In this document: positions 187 through 64,000 of the stretch, one piece after another
Position numbering within the stretch: position 1 is the first letter of the stretch
Layout: every line of letters starts with the position of its first letter
From: Chloroflexota bacterium
GTDB taxonomy: Bacteria; Chloroflexota; Dormibacteria; Aeolococcales; Aeolococcaceae
Reading direction: 5' to 3'
Assembly (NCBI GenBank): GCA_005880985.1
Contig: VBIQ01000006.1
Span: 5,088 to 69,087 of the forward strand
DNA length: 64,000 nucleotides
Translations under genes and position numbers: made by a program
The notes under the pieces: generated by a model
The model's input: the letters and a program-made list of their open reading frames with translations, nothing else
The model's database searches: none
What the model was told of the DNA's origin: nothing

Positions 187-262
187 TGGTACGCCTGGAG
201 GGACTCGAACCCCCGCACCCGGCTCCGGAGGCCGGTGCTCTATCCAACTGAGCTACAGGCGC
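187..262 (-). tRNA. tRNA-Arg (anticodon CCG)
   Basis: Reverse complement folds as a cloverleaf: GCGCCTGTAGCTCAGTTGGATAGAGCA D-arm, anticodon stem CCGGC/GCCGG with loop CTCCGGA, GTTCGAGTCC T-loop, 3' CCA. Confidence 0.9.
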
Positions 263-29822: not shown

Positions 29823-30188
29823 TCATTCGACCTCCGTCTCCGGGCCGCCGCCGTGCAGAAAGCGCATGCCCTCCTCGACGGCGAAGCGCTCGCCACAGGT
29901 GGGACATTCCACCTGTGGCGCCTGGGGATCGTCCTCCGGGAGCAGCAGCCGGGCTCCACAGCCCGGACACTCCAGCACCGACGACGCGGAGCGGTTGTCC
30001 ATCAGCATCTCCCGGGCGGCGGCGGCCACATCGATGACCACGCTGCGGCAGCGGACGCAGACGTAGGTGGCCGCGCTGCCGTCGTGCTCCAGGTACCGCC
30101 CGGAGCCATCGACGATCAGCGGCGCGTTGAGGGCTTCGAAGTGCCCCTCGGGGCAGCCGTTGGGACAGCGCAGATCGCGGCGGGTCAC
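29823..30188 (-). CDS. Small zinc-ribbon protein (two CxxC pairs twice)
   Basis: About 121 aa. GTG start downstream of the ptrB stop. CPNGC...CVRC and CPGC...CPTC motifs. Confidence 0.4.
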   Translation of the reverse strand: MTRRDLRCPNGCPEGHFEALNAPLIVDGSGRYLEHDGSAATYVCVRCRSVVIDVAAAAREMLMDNRSASSVLECPGCGARLLLPEDDPQAPQVECPTCGERFAVEEGMRFLHGGGPETEVE

Positions 30189-55726: not shown

Positions 55727-55820
55727 GTGGCGGGAAGGGAGGGATTCGAACCCTCGGAGGAGCTTGACACCCCTCACCCGCTTAGCAGGCGGGCGCTTTC
55801 GGCCACTCAGCCACCTCCCC
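55727..55820 (-). tRNA. tRNA-Ser (anticodon GCT)
   Basis: Reverse complement GGGGAGGTGGCTGAGTGG...anticodon stem CCCGC/GCGGG with loop CTGCTAA, long variable arm, GGTTCGAATCC T-loop, CCA end. Confidence 0.9.
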
Positions 55821-55913: not shown

Positions 55914-56003
55914 GGAGGCATGCCGGAGCGGTTGATCGGAGCGGTCTTGAAAACCGCAAGGGCCGTCAAGCCCTCGGGGGTTCGAATCCCTCTGCCTCCG
56001 CCA
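55914..56003 (+). tRNA. tRNA-Ser (anticodon TGA)
   Basis: GGAGGCATGCCGGAGCGG...anticodon stem GCGGT/ACCGC with loop CTTGAAA, long variable arm, GGTTCGAATCC, CCA end. Confidence 0.9.
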
Positions 56004-57868: not shown

Positions 57869-59022
57869 CTGCTCGCGGACCAGGAGTAGGGGTAGCAGGT
57901 GTCGAGAACCTGTCGTGCCGCCTGGGTGCGGTGGAGCGGGCGGAAGGTGTCGATCATCACCGCCAGCTCGCTGGTCTCGCGGGCGCCGGTGAGGGCTGCT
58001 TCGAGGGCGCCCGGTTGCGGTCCGTGGGGGACACCGCCGACGTGGTGGGTCAGCGATCCCTCGCGCACCCCGCGCCGGGCGGAGTAGTCACCCCCGCAGT
58101 AGTACATCACCTCGTCGGAGTCGAGGTTGCTGTGATGATAGGGGAGGGCCACCGCCTCGGGATCCCAGTCGATCTTTCGCGGCACGAAGTTGCAGATCAC
58201 CAGCCCGGGCGCCTGGAACACCTGGTGCGTCGGCGGGGGAACATGGAAGCGTCCCGCCCGCGGCTCGAAGTCGTGGATCGAGAAGGCGCAGGGGTACACC
58301 GTCCCGTCCCAGCCGATGACGTCGAAGGGGTGGTGGTCGAGGCAGTAGCGGGTGATCCGGCCGCCGCGCTTCAGCATCACCTCCGCCGGACCGTCGGCCT
58401 GCTCGAGCTCCTCGGGAGCGCGGATGTCCCGCTCCGAGTACGGGGCGGCCTCGAGCAGCTGCCCGTTGCGGGAGCGATATCGCTCCGGCGAATCGACCAG
58501 CCCGGTGCACTCCAGCACCAGGACCCGGGTCGCCTGCGGCGCGGCGAGCTCGATGCGGTGCACCGTGCCCCTGGGGATGACCAGGTAGTCACCCTCCGCG
58601 ATCGGCAGGCGGCCGAACTGAGAGTGGAGGGTGGCCGCGCCGCGGTGGAAGAAGAGCACCTCGTCGGCGGACCCGTTGACGAACAGGGTCTCCTGCTGCC
58701 GCTCCGGGACAGCGACGCCGACGCGCACGTCGTCGTTGACCAGCAGCCAGCCACGCCCGCTGACGATGTCGCCCTCCGGCTGCATCCGCCAGGCCTCGAG
58801 GTGGGCATGGGTGTGGACCTGCTCCAACTCCATCGCCGCCCGGTCGTCGGCGCCGGGGACGACGTCGTGCGCCGCCTCCGGCATGCCCAGGTGATAGAGC
58901 AGCGAGGACGGACCGGTGAATCCCTCGCGACCAAAGAGCTCCTCGAAGACCGGCCTGCCGCCACGCTCGATCCGCATGTGCCGCTTGCGGGGAAGCTCAC
59001 CCAGGCGTCGGTACGACCGCAT
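57865..59022 (-). CDS. hmgA: Homogentisate 1,2-dioxygenase
   Basis: Cupin-type HGD with conserved Fe-binding His/Glu region (HHSNLDSDEVMYY...HVGGVPHGPQPG). Confidence 0.85.
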   Translation of the reverse strand: MRSYRRLGELPRKRHMRIERGGRPVFEELFGREGFTGPSSLLYHLGMPEAAHDVVPGADDRAAMELEQVHTHAHLEAWRMQPEGDIVSGRGWLLVNDDVRVGVAVPERQQETLFVNGSADEVLFFHRGAATLHSQFGRLPIAEGDYLVIPRGTVHRIELAAPQATRVLVLECTGLVDSPERYRSRNGQLLEAAPYSERDIRAPEELEQADGPAEVMLKRGGRITRYCLDHHPFDVIGWDGTVYPCAFSIHDFEPRAGRFHVPPPTHQVFQAPGLVICNFVPRKIDWDPEAVALPYHHSNLDSDEVMYYCGGDYSARRGVREGSLTHHVGGVPHGPQPGALEAALTGARETSELAVMIDTFRPLHRTQAARQVLDTCYPYSWSASS

Positions 59023-59024
59023 GG

Positions 59025-60143
59025 CTAGAGGTTTCCGCGCGCGGCCTGCTCGCGTTCGATGGCCTCGAAGAGCGCCTTGAAGTTGCCCTTGCCGAAGCCC
59101 TTCGCCCCCTTGCGCTGGATCACCTCGAAGAACAGCGTGGGACGGTCCGCGACGGGGCGGGTGAAGATCTGCAGCAGGTAGCCACCGTCCTCGAAGTCGA
59201 CCAGGACCGACAGCTCGCGAAGCCGGTCGAGATCCTCGCTGACGCCGTGCTCGCGCACCCTGGTGGCGATCTCCTCGTAGTACGCCGACGGAGCGGTCAG
59301 GAACTCGACCCCGCGCTCGCGCATGGCGAAGACGGACTCGACGATGTCGTCGGTGTGCAGGGCGATGTGCTGCACCCCGGCGCCGCCGTAGTAGTCGAGG
59401 TACTCCTGGATCTGCGACGCCCGCAGACCCTCGGCGGGTTCGTTGATGGGGAAGGTGATCCGGGTGCGCTGATCGCGGGTCACCTTGGAGCGGAGCGCGC
59501 TGTATCGGGTGGCGATGTCCTGCTCGTCGAACTCCTGGAAGACGTGAAAGCCGAAGACCTCGCGGTAGAAGTCCACCCAGGAGTCCATGGCACCGAGCTC
59601 GACGTTGCCGACGGTGTGGTCGATGTGGCGCAGTCCCACGCCCCCGCCGGGGCGGCGCTCGGCGCGGTACCCGGGCCAGTGCGGGCCGGAGTACTCGTCG
59701 CGCTCGACGAAGCGATGGACGGTGTCGCCGAAGGTGGCGATGCCCGCGTAGCGGAGGGCACCGTGCGAGTCCTCAACCGTGCGCGGCTCCTCGACCGCAC
59801 GGGCGCCGCGGGCGAGCGCCCCCTCGAAGGCGGCGGTGGCGTCCTCGACCCGGAGCGCGATGGTGCGGACGCCGTCTCCGTGGCGGTGGACGTGGGCCGC
59901 CAGCTCGCCTTCGGGGTGCAGCGGCGCGGTCAGTACCAGCCGCACCCGTCCCTGCTCGAGAACGTACGAGGCCCGGTCGCGCAGCCCGGTCTCCGGTCCC
60001 GCGTAGGCGATCACGTCGAAGCCGAAGGTGCTGCCGTAGTAGTGGGCCGCCTGGCGGGCGTTGCCCACCCACAGCTCGACGTGGTCGGTCCCGGTGAGCA
60101 CCGGCGGCGCCGCCGCCACCGCCCGTTCGATCACCTCAGCCAC
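59025..60143 (-). CDS. hppD: 4-hydroxyphenylpyruvate dioxygenase
   Basis: Two VOC modules with Fe ligands (HIALRV...HIDHTVGNV...QHIALHTDDI, then a C-terminal FFEVIQR Glu). GTG start overlaps the upstream gene by 8 nt. Confidence 0.85.
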   Translation of the reverse strand: MAEVIERAVAAAPPVLTGTDHVELWVGNARQAAHYYGSTFGFDVIAYAGPETGLRDRASYVLEQGRVRLVLTAPLHPEGELAAHVHRHGDGVRTIALRVEDATAAFEGALARGARAVEEPRTVEDSHGALRYAGIATFGDTVHRFVERDEYSGPHWPGYRAERRPGGGVGLRHIDHTVGNVELGAMDSWVDFYREVFGFHVFQEFDEQDIATRYSALRSKVTRDQRTRITFPINEPAEGLRASQIQEYLDYYGGAGVQHIALHTDDIVESVFAMRERGVEFLTAPSAYYEEIATRVREHGVSEDLDRLRELSVLVDFEDGGYLLQIFTRPVADRPTLFFEVIQRKGAKGFGKGNFKALFEAIEREQAARGNL

Positions 60144-61011
60144 CGCTGGGCTGCAGCCTCCGCTGGTTGAGCCCGTCCCAGAACACCTTGACCCCATCGA
60201 GCATCGCCGCCGCGCCCTCGAGGAACTTGGTCTCGTTGAAGCCGGGACGCTCGAACGCCTCGTGCAGCTCGTCCAGGGTGTGCGCCGCGTGCTGGTCCTC
60301 GACCCGATCGTGCCAGGTGAAGAAGGCCAATCTCAGCTCCGGGCACTCGCGGTCGCGGAACCGGTCCAGCCCGCTGATCAGCTGCTTCCAGAATCCGGCG
60401 GCGGCCCAGTTCTCGACCGCGAAGCTCGCGCCCTCGGCGATGTCGGGCTCCTCGCTGCCGTAGATGCGGGCCAGCTCGTCGCAGAAGTGCAGCGTGCTCG
60501 GCCAGCCGAAGCGCCGCTTGCCGATGTCCTGGAAGGAGAGCCCCAGCGGTTCGGCGACCTTGGTCAGCCACTCGAAGTGAGCGGCATTGAATCGATAGAC
60601 ACCGCCGTCGACGGTGCCCTCGGTGCTCACCAGATCGGGGTCACCCATGCGGTCCTTGGCGTCGTCGTCGACGGGAACGTCGTGCACCGGCGAGGTGCGA
60701 CCGGAGCGGAAGACGACGCCCAGCTCGTTGACCAGGATCTCCTTGCTCTCGCGCGCCTGCTCGATGCTCGGCGCGTTGATGGTCTTGAGGAGCTGAGCGA
60801 CGATGAAGAGGTTGCTGAACACCGAGAACTGCTGGATGAGGTCACGCACCTGGGCCCGCGTCGCCTCGCCCTTCTCGAACCAGACGCAGTAGCGGTTGTC
60901 GGTGACGACCGGGTGCTGCATCACGGTGCGCCGGACCTGCTCGAAGAAGCGGTCCCACCGCTCCGGCACCGAGGGAGCGGCGGCTTCGCTGATCAGTGTG
61001 GCCATGGACAC
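60136..61011 (-). CDS. Heme-oxygenase-like fold, iron-containing redox enzyme family protein (TenA/PqqC/CADD-like)
   Basis: 291 aa, all-helical composition. First gene of the hppD-hmgA-aminotransferase operon. Family-level call only. Confidence 0.45.
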   Translation of the reverse strand: MSMATLISEAAAPSVPERWDRFFEQVRRTVMQHPVVTDNRYCVWFEKGEATRAQVRDLIQQFSVFSNLFIVAQLLKTINAPSIEQARESKEILVNELGVVFRSGRTSPVHDVPVDDDAKDRMGDPDLVSTEGTVDGGVYRFNAAHFEWLTKVAEPLGLSFQDIGKRRFGWPSTLHFCDELARIYGSEEPDIAEGASFAVENWAAAGFWKQLISGLDRFRDRECPELRLAFFTWHDRVEDQHAAHTLDELHEAFERPGFNETKFLEGAAAMLDGVKVFWDGLNQRRLQPSGG

Positions 61012-61233
61012 GACACCTCCGACTGCCCGAGCTCCGCGGGGTTGGAAGAAGCCTCGACCATTCTCCCAGGCGTGCGCACATTCGTCCAGGCAGTGGCAGG
61101 ATCGCTAGACGAATACTCCGATTCTGGCTATCCTTGCTGGACAAATGGACCGGACGACGGGGCTTGACGCCCTCCCGGCTGGACGCCCTCAGCGGCAGGC
61201 CGCGCCGCGGCCGCCCCGGGGCTGACGCCCGCC

Positions 61234-61773
61234 GTGGCTCGCCGCCCCGACCTCGACGACGTTGACCGTCCGGACAGGGCGCCGCCGGCAGCGGCTGCCG
61301 CGGCCGCTGGCGCCCGCGCCGCCGTCGGCATCGACGCCGTCGACCGGCGCCTGCTCGAGGTCCTGCGCGACGACGGCCGGCTGTCGGTGGCGACGCTCGC
61401 CGAGCGCGCCGGCATCTCCCGGGCCGGCGCCTACAGCCGCCTCGAACGCCTCCGTGCGGATGGCGTCATCAGCGGCTTCAGCGCCCGCGTCGACAGCGCC
61501 CGCATCGGTCTGTCGATCGTCGCCGTCATCCTCATCTCCGGCCGCCAGCCGGCCTGGCGCTCGCTGCGCGCGCAGCTCGCCGCCATGCCCGAGGTCGAGT
61601 ACTGCGCCTTCACCAGCGGCGAGTACGACGCGCTGATCGTGGTCCGGGTCGCCGACGTCGAGACGCTGCGCGATGTCATCCTCGAACGGCTGCAGTCGAT
61701 GGCCGCGGTTCGCGCCACCCAGACGATCTTCGTGCTCGACGAGGTGGTGCGCCGTCCCTACGTACTGCCATAG
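61234..61773 (+). CDS. Lrp/AsnC family transcriptional regulator
   Basis: HTH (LDAVDRRLLEVLRDDGRLSVATLAERAGISRAGAYSRLERL) plus a C-terminal RAM domain. Divergent from the tyrosine-catabolism operon. The true start is probably internal to the listed ORF. Confidence 0.8.
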   Translation: MARRPDLDDVDRPDRAPPAAAAAAAGARAAVGIDAVDRRLLEVLRDDGRLSVATLAERAGISRAGAYSRLERLRADGVISGFSARVDSARIGLSIVAVILISGRQPAWRSLRAQLAAMPEVEYCAFTSGEYDALIVVRVADVETLRDVILERLQSMAAVRATQTIFVLDEVVRRPYVLP

Positions 61774-61802
61774 CGGCGTGCCGCGCCGCGGCGCCCCGCC
61801 GC

Positions 61803-62687
61803 TCAGTACTCCTGCAGGTACGAGCAGTTGTCGGCGAAGGAGAGCGGTTCGAAGCCGAACTGGCGCGGGACCGCGTCGATGCGGGTGATGTTGTTCTTCT
61901 TCAGCAGGCGCAGCTGCCCGGGTGTCACCGGCGGATTGGCAAGCAACCGGTCGAAGAGGACGGCGATCGGCAGCATCGCCGCGACCGGCACGTGCACCTT
62001 GCGCCGGCGCAGACCGAGCTCCGCCCTGATGATGTCGATGATCTCCTCGTAGGTGAGGTGATCGGGACCGCCGACCTCGTGGATGTCGTTGGACGACCCC
62101 CGGGCGATGCAGTCGACGACGATCCGTGAGAGGTCGGCCACGGCGAGCGGCTGGAAGAGGGCGCGACCGTTGCCGACGATGGGGATCACCGGGTTGAGCC
62201 GGATCAGCCTGGTCAGGGTGGTGAAGAAGCCGTCGCCGGGCCCGAAGAGCAGGCTGGGACGGAGCACGGTGTGGGGCACCGACGACCCGCGCACCGCCAT
62301 CTCCCCAGCCCACTTGCTGGCCAGGTACCCGTAGTAGGGATCGGGATCGACGCCGATGGCGCTGAGGTGGACGATGTGCCCGATCCCCGCCTGCCGCGCG
62401 GCCTGGGCGACGTTCTCGGCGCCGGCACGGTTGACCCGGTCGAAGGTCTGCGCACCGCGCTCGCGGATGACGGCGACGAGGTGCAGCACGGCGTCGCAAC
62501 CGCGCAGCGCGTCGAGCAGGCCGTCACCGGTGGTGACGTCGACGCGGAGGAAGTCGACGCCCTGAGGTCGTGGCCCGCGGCGCCGGCCCCGGCCGAGAAG
62601 CCGCAGCTGATGACCGGCCTGGCGCAGGGCGCGGCCGGTGTGCAGGCCGACGAATCCGGTGCCCCCGGTGACGGCGATCCGGGCCAC
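61803..62687 (-). CDS. NAD(P)H-binding atypical SDR (NmrA / NDUFA9-like)
   Basis: GTG start preceded by GGGAGGA. IAVTGGTGFVG Rossmann motif and a YxxxK-type YGYLASK. Confidence 0.75.
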   Translation of the reverse strand: MARIAVTGGTGFVGLHTGRALRQAGHQLRLLGRGRRRGPRPQGVDFLRVDVTTGDGLLDALRGCDAVLHLVAVIRERGAQTFDRVNRAGAENVAQAARQAGIGHIVHLSAIGVDPDPYYGYLASKWAGEMAVRGSSVPHTVLRPSLLFGPGDGFFTTLTRLIRLNPVIPIVGNGRALFQPLAVADLSRIVVDCIARGSSNDIHEVGGPDHLTYEEIIDIIRAELGLRRRKVHVPVAAMLPIAVLFDRLLANPPVTPGQLRLLKKNNITRIDAVPRQFGFEPLSFADNCSYLQEY

Positions 62688-62745
62688 GTGCGTCCTCCCT
62701 CGCGGCGGGCCCCTTGTGGGGCGCCGGCGCAAGGGTACGCAACCC

Positions 62746-62775
62746 TTGCGGCTTCGAACGCATGTTCGTTATACT
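62746..62775 (+). promoter_or_regulatory. SOS-regulated promoter with a Cheo-type LexA box in the spacer
   Basis: -35 TTGCGG (62746-62751) and -10 TATACT (62770-62775). The spacer holds TCGAACGCATGTTCG (62754-62768), which matches CGAAC-N4-GTTCG. Confidence 0.7.
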
Positions 62776-62873
62776 GATCCTCCCGCTCCACGCTCCCTCG
62801 ACGTCCTCATCGGGGCAGGGAGGTCGATACCAGGTGAGCTCCGCACGGCGGCGTGCCGCGCGGAAGGAGCGAA

Positions 62874-63740
62874 GTGTCCGGGCCCATCCTCATGGACGAT
62901 CCGTCCTCGCTGATCGAGGCCGTCACCCTGGTGCGGCGGCGGTTTGGGGCAGCGGCACTGCGGCGCGGCGGTGATCCGCTTCCCGAGCCCGCCTGGGTCA
63001 CCGGAGTGCCCGCGCTCGATCAGGGACTCGGCCAGGGCGGCCTCGTCCGCGGGCGGCTGACGGTGCTCGCCGGCGCCCGGTCACCGGTGACGGGGCGGCT
63101 GACGCTGCTGCAGGCGCTGGCGGCGGTGGCCAGCCGCACCATGCCGGTGGTCTACGTCGACCTGGTGGGGACGCTCGACCCCGGCTTCCTCGCCGACCTG
63201 GGGGCCGACCTCGACGCCTGCCTGGTGGTCCGTCCTCCCGGCGGCGATCTGGCGCCGGGATTGGTGATGGGATATTCCCTGGTCGCCGCCGGTGTGCCCT
63301 GGCTGGCGGTCGCCCTGCCCGTCCATCCCCAGCCGGCGTGGAGGCGGGCGGAACCGGCGCTGGCCGCGCTGGTGGCCACTGTCGAGGGGAGGCGGGCGGT
63401 GGCCTGTGTCGCCGCCCCGGCGCCGCTCGCCGCCCCTCTCGCCTATGCCTCGTCGCTGACGGTGACCTGCCGGTCACTGGGATGGCAGGAGGAGCACGAC
63501 GACGTGGTCGGGCTGCGCGTGGGTCTGGAGGTGGTGAAGAGCCGGGTGGGGACGCCGGGAAGTCAGGCCGGGGTGCTGCTGCGCTACCCGCGTCCGCACG
63601 GGACCGGCGAGGTGGTCGGCTTCCCGACGGTGGTCGGTCTGCCCGCCTCCCCCGACGGTGCGGGGGTCGCGGCCACCCTCGGACCGGAGGTCACCCCTGC
63701 CGTCGCGCCCGGTGGCGGTCCCGCCGTCGCCGCCGGGTAG
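62874..63740 (+). CDS. imuA': ImuA'-like inactive RecA-fold protein (SOS mutasome component)
   Basis: RecA-core-like GVPALDQGLGQGGLVRGRLTVLAG, but a degenerate P-loop (ARSPVTGRLTL instead of GxxxxGKT). VVYVDLVGTLDP strand follows. GTG start preceded by GGAAGGAG. Confidence 0.7.
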   Translation: MSGPILMDDPSSLIEAVTLVRRRFGAAALRRGGDPLPEPAWVTGVPALDQGLGQGGLVRGRLTVLAGARSPVTGRLTLLQALAAVASRTMPVVYVDLVGTLDPGFLADLGADLDACLVVRPPGGDLAPGLVMGYSLVAAGVPWLAVALPVHPQPAWRRAEPALAALVATVEGRRAVACVAAPAPLAAPLAYASSLTVTCRSLGWQEEHDDVVGLRVGLEVVKSRVGTPGSQAGVLLRYPRPHGTGEVVGFPTVVGLPASPDGAGVAATLGPEVTPAVAPGGGPAVAAG

Positions 63741-63767
63741 CCGTCGGTTGCCCGAGCCTCGCTGCCG

Positions 63768-64000
63768 CCATGCCCCGCATCCTCTGCGCCCGCTTCCCCC
63801 ACCTCGGCCTGGTGGTGGCCTGGCGGCGGTATCCCGAGCTGCGCGGCGAACCCGTCGCCATCGCCTCCGACACCACGGCGGGCGCCGTCGCCCTGGCCGC
63901 CTCGGAGGCCGCCCGGGCAGCCGGAGTCCACCCGGGGCAGCCGCTCCGCCAGGTCCGGCACCTCTGTCCCGGGGCTGCCGTGCTTCCCTTCGACGCCACC
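63768..64000 (+). CDS. imuB: ImuB-like Y-family polymerase homologue (5' part only, truncated by window end)
   Basis: N-terminus MPRILCARFPHLGLVVAWRRYPELRGEPVAI matches the UmuC/DinB-like start of ImuB proteins. Confidence 0.6.

Follow-up and report, generated by a model that had tools for sequence, protein, structure and literature searches.

A predicted LexA-controlled mutasome operon of Candidatus Dormibacterota headed by an apparently ATPase-dead RecA paralogue

What kind of system is encoded at the end of the 64,000-nucleotide stretch of contig VBIQ01000006.1 analysed here (the window), where a gene for a RecA-like protein and the beginning of a gene for a Y-family DNA polymerase follow a palindrome that resembles a LexA operator? 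An earlier note on this DNA had read these elements as an imuA'-imuB cassette with a LexA box in the spacer of a textbook SOS promoter, and had expected dnaE2 just beyond the window. We suggest that the window probably ends with the start of a mutasome operon (its promoter plus one and a quarter genes) that would be repressed by LexA and induced by DNA damage in an uncultured soil bacterium of Candidatus Dormibacterota. The earlier interpretation, an SOS-type inducible mutagenesis operon with dnaE2 downstream, thus seems right in substance. The host belongs to Candidatus Dormibacterota and not to Actinobacteria; the homologues come almost entirely from metagenome-assembled genomes (MAGs) of this phylum.

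Direct reading of positions 61800-64000 finds the -35-like hexamer, the box, the -10 hexamer and the two genes all where the earlier note had put them (Table 1). The spacer between the -35 and the -10 is 18 bp long, and the whole palindrome lies inside it. Its motif is the published LexA motif of Firmicutes and Actinobacteria, GAAC-N4-GTTC (PMC4951493), and of Streptomyces, where chromatin immunoprecipitation sequencing gave tCGAAC-N4-GNNCGa (PMC9380542). The references of PMC4951493 also include a study that, by its title, reports the Gram-positive LexA binding sequence for Dehalococcoides ethenogenes, a green nonsulfur bacterium. Taken alone, the single perfect box in the window is suggestive and only moderately above chance. 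The 64 kb contain a single perfect CGAAC-N4-GTTCG core against 0.07 expected from dinucleotide shuffles, at least one such core being present in 7 of 100 shuffles. Boxes with one mismatch are at chance level (3 observed, 2.66 expected).

Because the arrangement is conserved in related loci, and not on account of the single site in the window, we regard the promoter model as a real phylogenetic footprint. Species-representative genomes were scanned with a profile of the first protein, which gave 80 loci, nearly all of them from Candidatus Dormibacterota MAGs; 79 of these have at least 150 nt of upstream sequence and were used in the promoter comparison. Upstream of the orthologous gene, the box is perfect in 71 of the 79 loci and has one mismatch in the other 8. 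A TAnnnT hexamer begins exactly 1 nt after the box in all 79 (TACACT in 35, TATACT in 15, TATCAT in 15, other forms in 14). In 63 loci TTGC occupies the corresponding position; the spacer is 17 bp long in 57 of these and 18 bp long in the other 6. The invariant feature across loci is therefore the distance from the box to the -10, the -35 being conserved only as TTGC. Ten of the 79 loci have a second box slightly upstream. The related loci, 1.3 Mb in all, contain 83 perfect boxes against about 1 expected by an estimate from base composition, and almost all of them are located at the promoter of the recA paralogue or at its duplicate. It is from this conservation that we infer the promoter. The idea of a Cheo-type LexA operator inside the promoter spacer is well supported, since the architecture is kept in every locus compared. 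The word "textbook" suits the layout but neither the -35, of which only TTGC is conserved, nor the 18-bp spacer, which is a minority form (17 bp is usual).

Two outgroups appear consistent with a LexA operator. The promoter of the cassette in the cultured Thermomicrobium roseum reads TTGACT-G-CGAACAGGTGTTCG-AC-TATGAT and is accompanied by a second box. In an imuA operon of Burkholderia, a CTGT-N8-ACAG palindrome takes the place of the Cheo box, and this is the type quoted in PMC4951493 as the LexA motif of Gammaproteobacteria.

The first gene encodes a RecA-fold protein. Its 288-aa frame is identical to the public gene call P0001, and the protein matches Pfam RecA (PF00154) at 46.4 bits, with a cut-off of 27. 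A profile of 25 homologues aligns with solved RecA chains over profile positions 4-230 at E ~5e-18, and the top Foldseek matches, obtained with an AlphaFold model of mean predicted local distance difference test (pLDDT) score 62, are all RecA (E 2e-6). Where RecA reads GPESSGKT, the P-loop of the window protein is G-ARSPVT-GRL. Family-wide the pattern is G...(A/V)(T/S)GRL, such that the GKT of Walker A has become GRL, and the position of the catalytic Glu96 is not conserved. On these grounds the earlier claim of a RecA fold with a destroyed P-loop is upheld. The C-terminal domain of RecA is absent, and a low-confidence tail of Pro, Ala and Gly is found instead. The RecA-like N-terminal helix and strand are retained (residues 10-31, pLDDT ~90). 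In RecA, these two elements serve oligomerisation.

What should this protein be called? It does not qualify as a RecA recombinase: TIGR02012 matches only the N-terminal 115 residues, at 42.6 bits where 325 are required, and to this are added the GRL for GKT and the loss of Glu96 and of the C-terminal domain. The name imuA' could not be kept either. NF058630 (ImuA'/Rv3395c, cut-off 65 bits) gives no match to the window protein at E <= 1. Some distant relatives are matched by this model at 20-28 bits; it was therefore present in the library searched. NF033429 (ImuA of the proteobacterial type, cut-off 150) reaches 22.4 bits (E 9e-5) over residues 46-129 only, and hhalign against Burkholderia ImuA gives Prob 5.9% and E 0.006. 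By the RecA matches given above, the protein is clearly nearer to RecA. It is best called an ATPase-dead RecA paralogue, presumably ImuA-like in function, that lies outside the curated ImuA and ImuA' families.

An exhaustive hidden Markov model search with this family returned 26 cluster representatives at E <= 1e-30. Beyond those 26, most of the proteins among the best 150 matches (E to ~1e-15) have 225-270 aa, and in twelve of these that were aligned the Walker A lysine is mostly substituted. At E <= 1e-10 the search takes in 687 representatives, true RecA included. A plasmid search found no direct homologues of the RecA paralogue. Many divergent RecA paralogues of Dormibacterota end in (L/V/A)-A-G-stop after an unconserved tail (63732-63740 in the window). 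The start codon that follows lies 2 to 35 nt beyond this end, depending on the locus, and an overlap with a ribosome-binding site therefore cannot explain it. This end may be a C-terminal recognition motif.

The second gene, which encodes an inactive Y-family polymerase (iPolY), begins after a gap of 29 nt without a terminator-like site, and it follows the recA-like gene in every related locus long enough for the order to be compared. The 77-codon fragment in the window matches Pfam IMS at 44.7 bits. Contig L001 (2549 nt in total), which is identical to the window over 1899 nt, adds 650 nt and extends the protein to 293 aa, for which the IMS match rises to 73.5 bits. When aligned with E. coli DinB, the catalytic residues D8, D10 and D103 are R, P and E, and the D8 position is never Asp in 30 relatives. 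Full-length relatives have 400-477 aa with IMS and IMS_C domains. Their C-terminus carries, in this order, Q(T/L)D(L/M)(W/L), a stretch resembling the RecA N-terminus (e.g., ERDAVARVAARLCDRFGRTAVL), and DPGDLPERRFxWE. In the homologue that is 94-95% identical to the window iPolY, QTDLW is followed by this same stretch, the motifs being assigned by eye against PMC11791113; in the window gene, this part lies beyond the window end. Mycobacterial ImuB has a clamp motif and then a RecA N-terminal (RecA-NT) motif (PMC11791113), and the order found here agrees with it. A plasmid search with the Y-family protein gave DinB/Pol IV-type genes only and no ImuB. This agrees with the remark that inactive Y-family groups which are not ImuB remain near the PolY core (PMC6511836). 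The label "imuB" is not supported as written. A catalytically dead Y-family polymerase is supported (the IMS match is present and the catalytic acids are lost), but the ImuB-C part is a separate gene of 80-84 aa in the relatives.

Two contigs, L089 and L090, were found via the partial Y-family protein (homologues 94-95% identical), and the operon beyond the window was read from L089. L089 shares 92% DNA identity with positions 58001-64000 and is fully syntenic, the order being HPPD-like, a 289-aa gene, AsnC, short-chain dehydrogenase/reductase (SDR), RecA-like and iPolY (477 aa). After iPolY comes an ImuB-C-like open reading frame (ORF) of 80 aa, its ATG overlapping the iPolY stop (ATGA), then a spacer of ~480 nt and the gene for DnaE2, which is 66% identical to DnaE2 of L039 and L004. 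On the scale of L089, dnaE2 would lie ~1.9 kb past the window end. The expected dnaE2 is indeed found in L089 and in 69 related loci, though with one extra gene, imuB-C, in between; the small ORF is present in 72 related loci. The DnaE2 proteins of relatives score 977-1005 bits against NF004225 (error-prone polymerase, cut-off 939).

In every relative examined, ImuB-C is a separate ORF of 80-84 aa that overlaps the stop codon of the Y-family gene, and this start-stop overlap is of the kind that goes with translational coupling. The small ORF has no matching model in Pfam and NCBIfam. By hhalign, its profile aligns with the last 53 residues of the PolY-like protein of Thermus brockianus pTB1 (Prob 82%, E 1e-5), whose gene sits between an S24/LexA-like gene and dnaE, and more weakly with the C-termini of the ImuB-like proteins of T. 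roseum and Burkholderia. The small protein has an invariant C-terminal Trp and Arg-Arg. We read it as a free-standing ImuB-C, because these matches and residues fit ImuB-C (PMC3765255). A Sinorhizobium plasmid match to the small ORF lies in an SDR gene and was discarded as spurious. The four-gene order recA-like, iPolY, imuB-C, dnaE2 holds across Dormibacterota.

This arrangement is not confined to Dormibacterota, and at least one lineage further removed has it too. Contig L087, whose source organism is richer in AT (Logan SRR33283523; L087:7001-12244), carries recA-like, IMS, 84-aa ImuB-C-like and DnaE2 genes in this order. The identity of its RecA paralogue with the window protein is 29%, and the profile of the small protein matches the 84-aa ORF of L087 with Prob 97% and E 1e-11. 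The L087 cassette is adjoined by an SRAP gene. In both L087 and L088 (L088:7001-8855), which come from other, more AT-rich organisms, this cassette begins with a distant RecA paralogue of 225-240 aa (identity ~29%) whose Walker A Lys is substituted, and palindromes that are GAAAC-N4-GTTTC-like or GAAC-like lie upstream.

Some related loci have further boxes. In about nine Dormibacterota loci (L029, L017, L025, L027, L028, L034, L035, L038 and L056), an unrelated gene is inserted after the Y-family gene. In L029 the inserted gene encodes a 1181-aa STAND/TPR AfsR-like protein, and a copy of the promoter with TTGC, box, -10, leader and the first recA-like codons (L029:15600-16053) precedes imuB-C-dnaE2. 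In the other loci of this set, the extra box has a matching position. The promoter thus seems to have been duplicated, which would restore SOS control to the separated imuB-C-dnaE2. In L075, two more perfect CGAAC-N4-GTTCG boxes ~100 nt apart (L075:6134-6251) are situated 3.8 kb from the cassette, upstream of an unrelated divergent 302-aa gene without assigned function. This gene may be another SOS target.

How would such an operon be controlled, and what would its products do? The imuA-imuB-dnaE2 cassette belongs to the core SOS regulon (PMC4951493). We propose that a LexA dimer binds the CGAAC-N4-GTTCG palindrome. As the whole spacer from the -35 (TTGC..) to the -10 (TAnnnT) is taken up by the palindrome, bound LexA would block RNA polymerase. 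After DNA damage, RecA filaments would trigger the self-cleavage of LexA and the operon would be transcribed. The products would be an ATPase-dead RecA paralogue that keeps the RecA N-terminal helix and core, a dead DinB-like polymerase with a C-terminal clamp-binding-like QxDLW and a RecA-N-terminus-like motif, a free-standing ImuB-C of 80-84 aa, and an error-prone DnaE2. By analogy with the mycobacterial mutasome and with published models (PMC11791113, PMC12926913), iPolY would bind the beta clamp and use its RecA-NT motif to hold the RecA paralogue; in ImuB, it is this motif that binds ImuA', and mutagenesis depends on it (PMC11791113). The link to DnaE2, the subunit that would carry out error-prone lesion synthesis, would be made by ImuB-C. 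With its retained N-terminal helix, the RecA paralogue may also dock on RecA filaments.

Could the genes instead be a canonical actinobacterial-type imuA'-imuB pair, i.e., an ImuA' of the Rv3395c family, an ImuB with fused ImuB-C, and dnaE2 adjacent or unlinked? A RecA-like gene followed by a dead Y-family polymerase gene behind a Cheo box is the order seen in mycobacteria (PMC10421592, PMC8682763), and JGI names one Y-family homologue "protein ImuB". We hold such a pair to be highly improbable, given the lack of an NF058630 match and the low NF033429 score, the almost purely Dormibacterota origin of the homologues, the separate ImuB-C gene of every relative examined, and plasmid matches that are of the DinB/Pol IV type and not ImuB. 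Another view accepts the operon and concerns the role of its first protein, which might mainly modulate RecA or the SOS signal, e.g., by capping or competing with filaments via its N-terminal helix, and not be a structural subunit. The confidently predicted N-terminal helix and strand, by contrast with the N-terminus of mycobacterial ImuA', which is unstructured in models (PMC11791113), would suit this role, as would the alignment of the profile with RecA from residue 4 and the reported interaction of Myxococcus xanthus ImuA with RecA (PMC11791113; bioRxiv 10.1101/2020.12.14.422803). However, the gene of the paralogue comes first in an operon that also encodes a Y-family protein with a predicted RecA-NT docking motif, which argues for direct complex formation. 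We therefore favor a structural subunit and consider modulation an unlikely main role, though the two roles are not mutually exclusive.

A further question is whether the palindrome belongs to LexA. It might be the operator of another repressor or have no regulatory role, with the operon outside LexA control. A tblastn search with E. coli LexA found no lexA homologue in either the window or the related loci (1.3 Mb), LexA-independent damage responses are known (PafBC in mycobacteria, PMC8682763; DdiA in Myxococcus, PMC12288472), and 7% of shuffles contain a perfect site, as given above. Against this stand the identity of the motif with the LexA motif established by experiment in neighbouring phyla (PMC4951493, PMC9380542), its distance from the -10, which is the same to the base in all 79 loci, and its presence ahead of the analogous T. 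roseum cassette. A palindrome unconnected with LexA is thus very unlikely, and we retain the LexA operator. The earlier note had also pointed out an 8-bp-stem hairpin between this promoter and the divergent SDR gene. The hairpin is present and its stem is in fact 9 bp, one pair longer. It might serve as another operator, terminate the divergent SDR gene or be a regulatory site shared by both sides, since its perfect stem overlaps the -35 and is retained in two contigs ~92% identical to the window. However, it is kept only in those contigs, and such hairpins are no commoner than in random sequence of the same composition: the window has 24 distinct perfect hairpins whose stem is 8 bp or longer, while first-order random sequence gives 20.8 +/- 5.9. 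Inverted repeats beside the box in relatives are no longer than those at control positions (the best average 4.47 and 4.26, respectively). More distant relatives have nothing equivalent, and no stem-preserving compensatory changes were seen in moderately diverged ones. There is no T-tract, and the upstream gene varies among relatives (an aldehyde dehydrogenase in L039, an epimerase in L007). We therefore give very little credence to a function and rejected the hairpin as a functional element.

Several points weigh against a LexA-controlled mutasome operon as proposed here. LexA binding and damage induction are predictions, and the search for lexA in the window and the related loci was negative. 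A sigma-70 consensus scan of the window called no promoter at TTGCGG/TATACT, because TTGCGG agrees with TTGACA at 3 of 6 positions only; the -35 is weak by the E. coli consensus. The last three quarters of the operon are deduced from relatives, the closest of which is 92% identical. The structural model of the RecA paralogue is mediocre, with residues 38-78, which include the P-loop region, below pLDDT 50 (the low mean was given above). The contacts between subunits are proposed by analogy only. Lastly, a 2026 preprint describes mycobacterial ImuA as an ATP-dependent helicase-nuclease (10.64898/2026.08.14.744951), and a purely structural role of such proteins is therefore not settled.

The leader between promoter and first gene would be ~92 nt long if transcription starts near 62782. 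Its sequence is conserved within subgroups of relatives, and in most minimum-free-energy folds a CGCTCC or CCTCTC stretch pairs with the Shine-Dalgarno (SD) sequence. The leader has no match in Rfam, RNAalifold finds no consensus structure in the leader alignment, folding z-scores are near 0, and the energies of anti-SD:SD duplexes are no better than those of composition-matched shuffles (mean z -0.5). A structured or SD-sequestering leader RNA is thus unsupported, and what is conserved in the leader is its sequence. Related C-rich blocks, of which CCCGCCTCGGCGCTCC is an example, are found again in this position in the leaders of relatives and in the duplicated promoters. Elsewhere in the window, the longest perfect hairpin with a loop of 3-8 nt has a 12-bp stem, CGCCACAGGTGG-GACATT-CCACCTGTGGCG (29891-29920).

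The starts of the SDR gene and of the recA paralogue are separated by 183 bp. The order of the upstream genes, from the HPPD-like gene to the SDR gene, is kept in L089 and not in more distant relatives. These genes and the other features of the window are listed in Table 1.

Table 1. Features of the window discussed in the text, with positions counted from its first letter
Feature	Position	Strand	Remarks
-35-like hexamer TTGCGG	62746-62751	+	read directly
LexA-type (Cheo / Gram-positive) operator TCGAACGCATGTTCG, predicted	62754-62768	.	motif match and conservation
Perfect palindromic core CGAAC-N4-GTTCG, CGAACGCATGTTCG	62755-62768		within the operator
-10 hexamer TATACT	62770-62775	+	1 base 3' of the box; read directly
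5' leader, inferred, pyrimidine-rich	62776-62873	+	ends in Shine-Dalgarno AAGGAG (62864-62869)
RecA paralogue, probably ATPase-dead, ImuA-like, 288 aa	62874-63740	+	GTG start, AAGGAG 4 nt upstream
Y-family polymerase (iPolY), catalytically inactive, 5' part, 77 codons	63770-64000	+	ATG start; runs off the window
Perfect 9-bp-stem hairpin CGCAAGGGT-ACGCA-ACCCTTGCG	62728-62750	.	overlaps the -35; judged incidental
NAD-dependent epimerase/NmrA-type SDR	61803-62690	-	Pfam; start read as GTG 62690 after GGGAGG
AsnC/Lrp regulator	61234-61773	+	
291-aa ORF	60136-61011	-	no Pfam match
HPPD-like glyoxalase-fold dioxygenase	59025-60197	-	
tRNA gene	190-262	-	at gathering threshold, Rfam matches nothing in the window except the three tRNA genes
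tRNA gene	55731-55820	-	
tRNA gene	55914-56000	+	

Dormibacterota are a widespread soil phylum, known here from MAGs only. The operon gives a first testable picture of SOS control in this phylum, namely a likely LexA operator sequence and one target operon. Since LexA-controlled error-prone synthesis by DnaE2 is already well known, the gain is comparative and not conceptual. It lies in a naturally "disassembled" mutasome, in which the subunit that resembles RecA, the dead polymerase that would bind the clamp and the adaptor ImuB-C are separate proteins. Such a split system could help to assign functions to the parts of ImuB and ImuA, which are still debated for the mycobacterial mutasome, a complex implicated in the evolution of drug resistance. 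It could also help to show how ImuA arose from RecA. Among the top-ranked matches of a literature search, no paper was found that links Dormibacterota with these genes. It is possible that in large surveys such cassettes were binned as "ImuA-ImuB-DnaE2 with reduced ImuB".

How does the operon compare with known systems? E. coli Pol V (UmuD'2C-RecA-ATP) is likewise a LexA-repressed Y-family translesion complex with a RecA subunit that is bound via a RecA-NT-like motif (PMC6511836). In Pol V, however, UmuC is itself the active polymerase and DnaE2 is absent; its RecA is that of housekeeping, and cleavage of UmuD takes part in regulation. The LexA-regulated dinB2(iPolY)-dnaE2 operon of Streptomyces (PMC9380542, PMC12926913) shares the inactive PolY-core-like polymerase, DnaE2 and tCGAAC-N4-GNNCGa boxes, but is without a RecA paralogue and without ImuB-C. 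Three groups of ImuA, i.e., ImuA1, ImuA2 and ImuA3, are already described (PMC12926913). The ImuA3 group, or ImuA of M. xanthus (PMC11002988, PMC12926913), is also a type of ImuA close to RecA. Compared by published description, ImuA3 has Walker A and B and hydrolyses ATP, whereas the Dormibacterota protein has GRL and no Glu96.

The megaplasmid of T. roseum carries a similar cassette, with a RecA paralogue (WP_012643219), a ~416-aa PolY-like protein annotated as hypothetical (WP_041437318) and DnaE2 (WP_012642612); this DnaE2 is the best plasmid match to Dormibacterota DnaE2, with 44% identity. Its RecA paralogue differs in that it keeps the Walker A lysine (GPTYSGKRT), and it is only distantly similar to that of Dormibacterota (hhalign E 3e-6 over ~100 residues). 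The middle protein appears to end in a fused ImuB-C-like tail, though the match is weak (E 0.16). In NC_011961 (L085:3240-3290), the gene that heads the cassette is annotated "recombinase A", and of its two Cheo boxes one is inside the TTGACT/TATGAT promoter.

Mycobacterial ImuA'-ImuB-DnaE2 resembles the Dormibacterota operon in being a damage-inducible operon (here by prediction) with a dead RecA homologue first and a dead Y-family polymerase next, in the DnaE2 catalytic subunit and in the Cheo-type operator. Mycobacterial ImuB has a clamp motif directly followed by the RecA-NT motif (352-QLPLW-356 in Mycobacterium smegmatis, PMC11791113), and the L089 relative has putative counterparts of these (QTDLW and then ERDAVARVAARLCDRFG). 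Unlike the mycobacterial protein, the RecA homologue of the window fails the ImuA' model and keeps the RecA N-terminal helix. As read from relatives, ImuB-C is a separate gene here and dnaE2 lies in the same operon; the phylum is a different one.

The DnaE2X-iPolY-[ImuB-C]-RecA or "split ImuB" module of the Kyrpidia tusciae type (PMC6511836, PMC12926913) has an inactive DinB-like polymerase with RecA-NT together with a stand-alone ImuB-C and DnaE2 in one operon, as is read here from relatives; a solo ImuB-C with an inactive DinB and DnaE2 had already been described (PMC3765255). In that module, imuA is absent from the operon and from the genome as a whole, and the proposal is that the housekeeping RecA is used instead (PMC6511836). 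In Dormibacterota, by contrast, a dedicated ATPase-dead RecA paralogue is encoded by the first gene, and we do not assign the operon to the module as defined in PMC12926913. Each part is thus known from elsewhere, and their combination, with a dead RecA paralogue first, a split ImuB and DnaE2, was not found in PMC3765255, PMC6511836 or PMC12926913. We tentatively put forward, as one possibility, that the operon represents an undescribed mutasome type, an evolutionary intermediate between the DnaE2X-iPolY-ImuB-C module with housekeeping RecA and the canonical ImuA-ImuB-DnaE2. If this is true, a copy of RecA was recruited and inactivated before iPolY and ImuB-C were fused.

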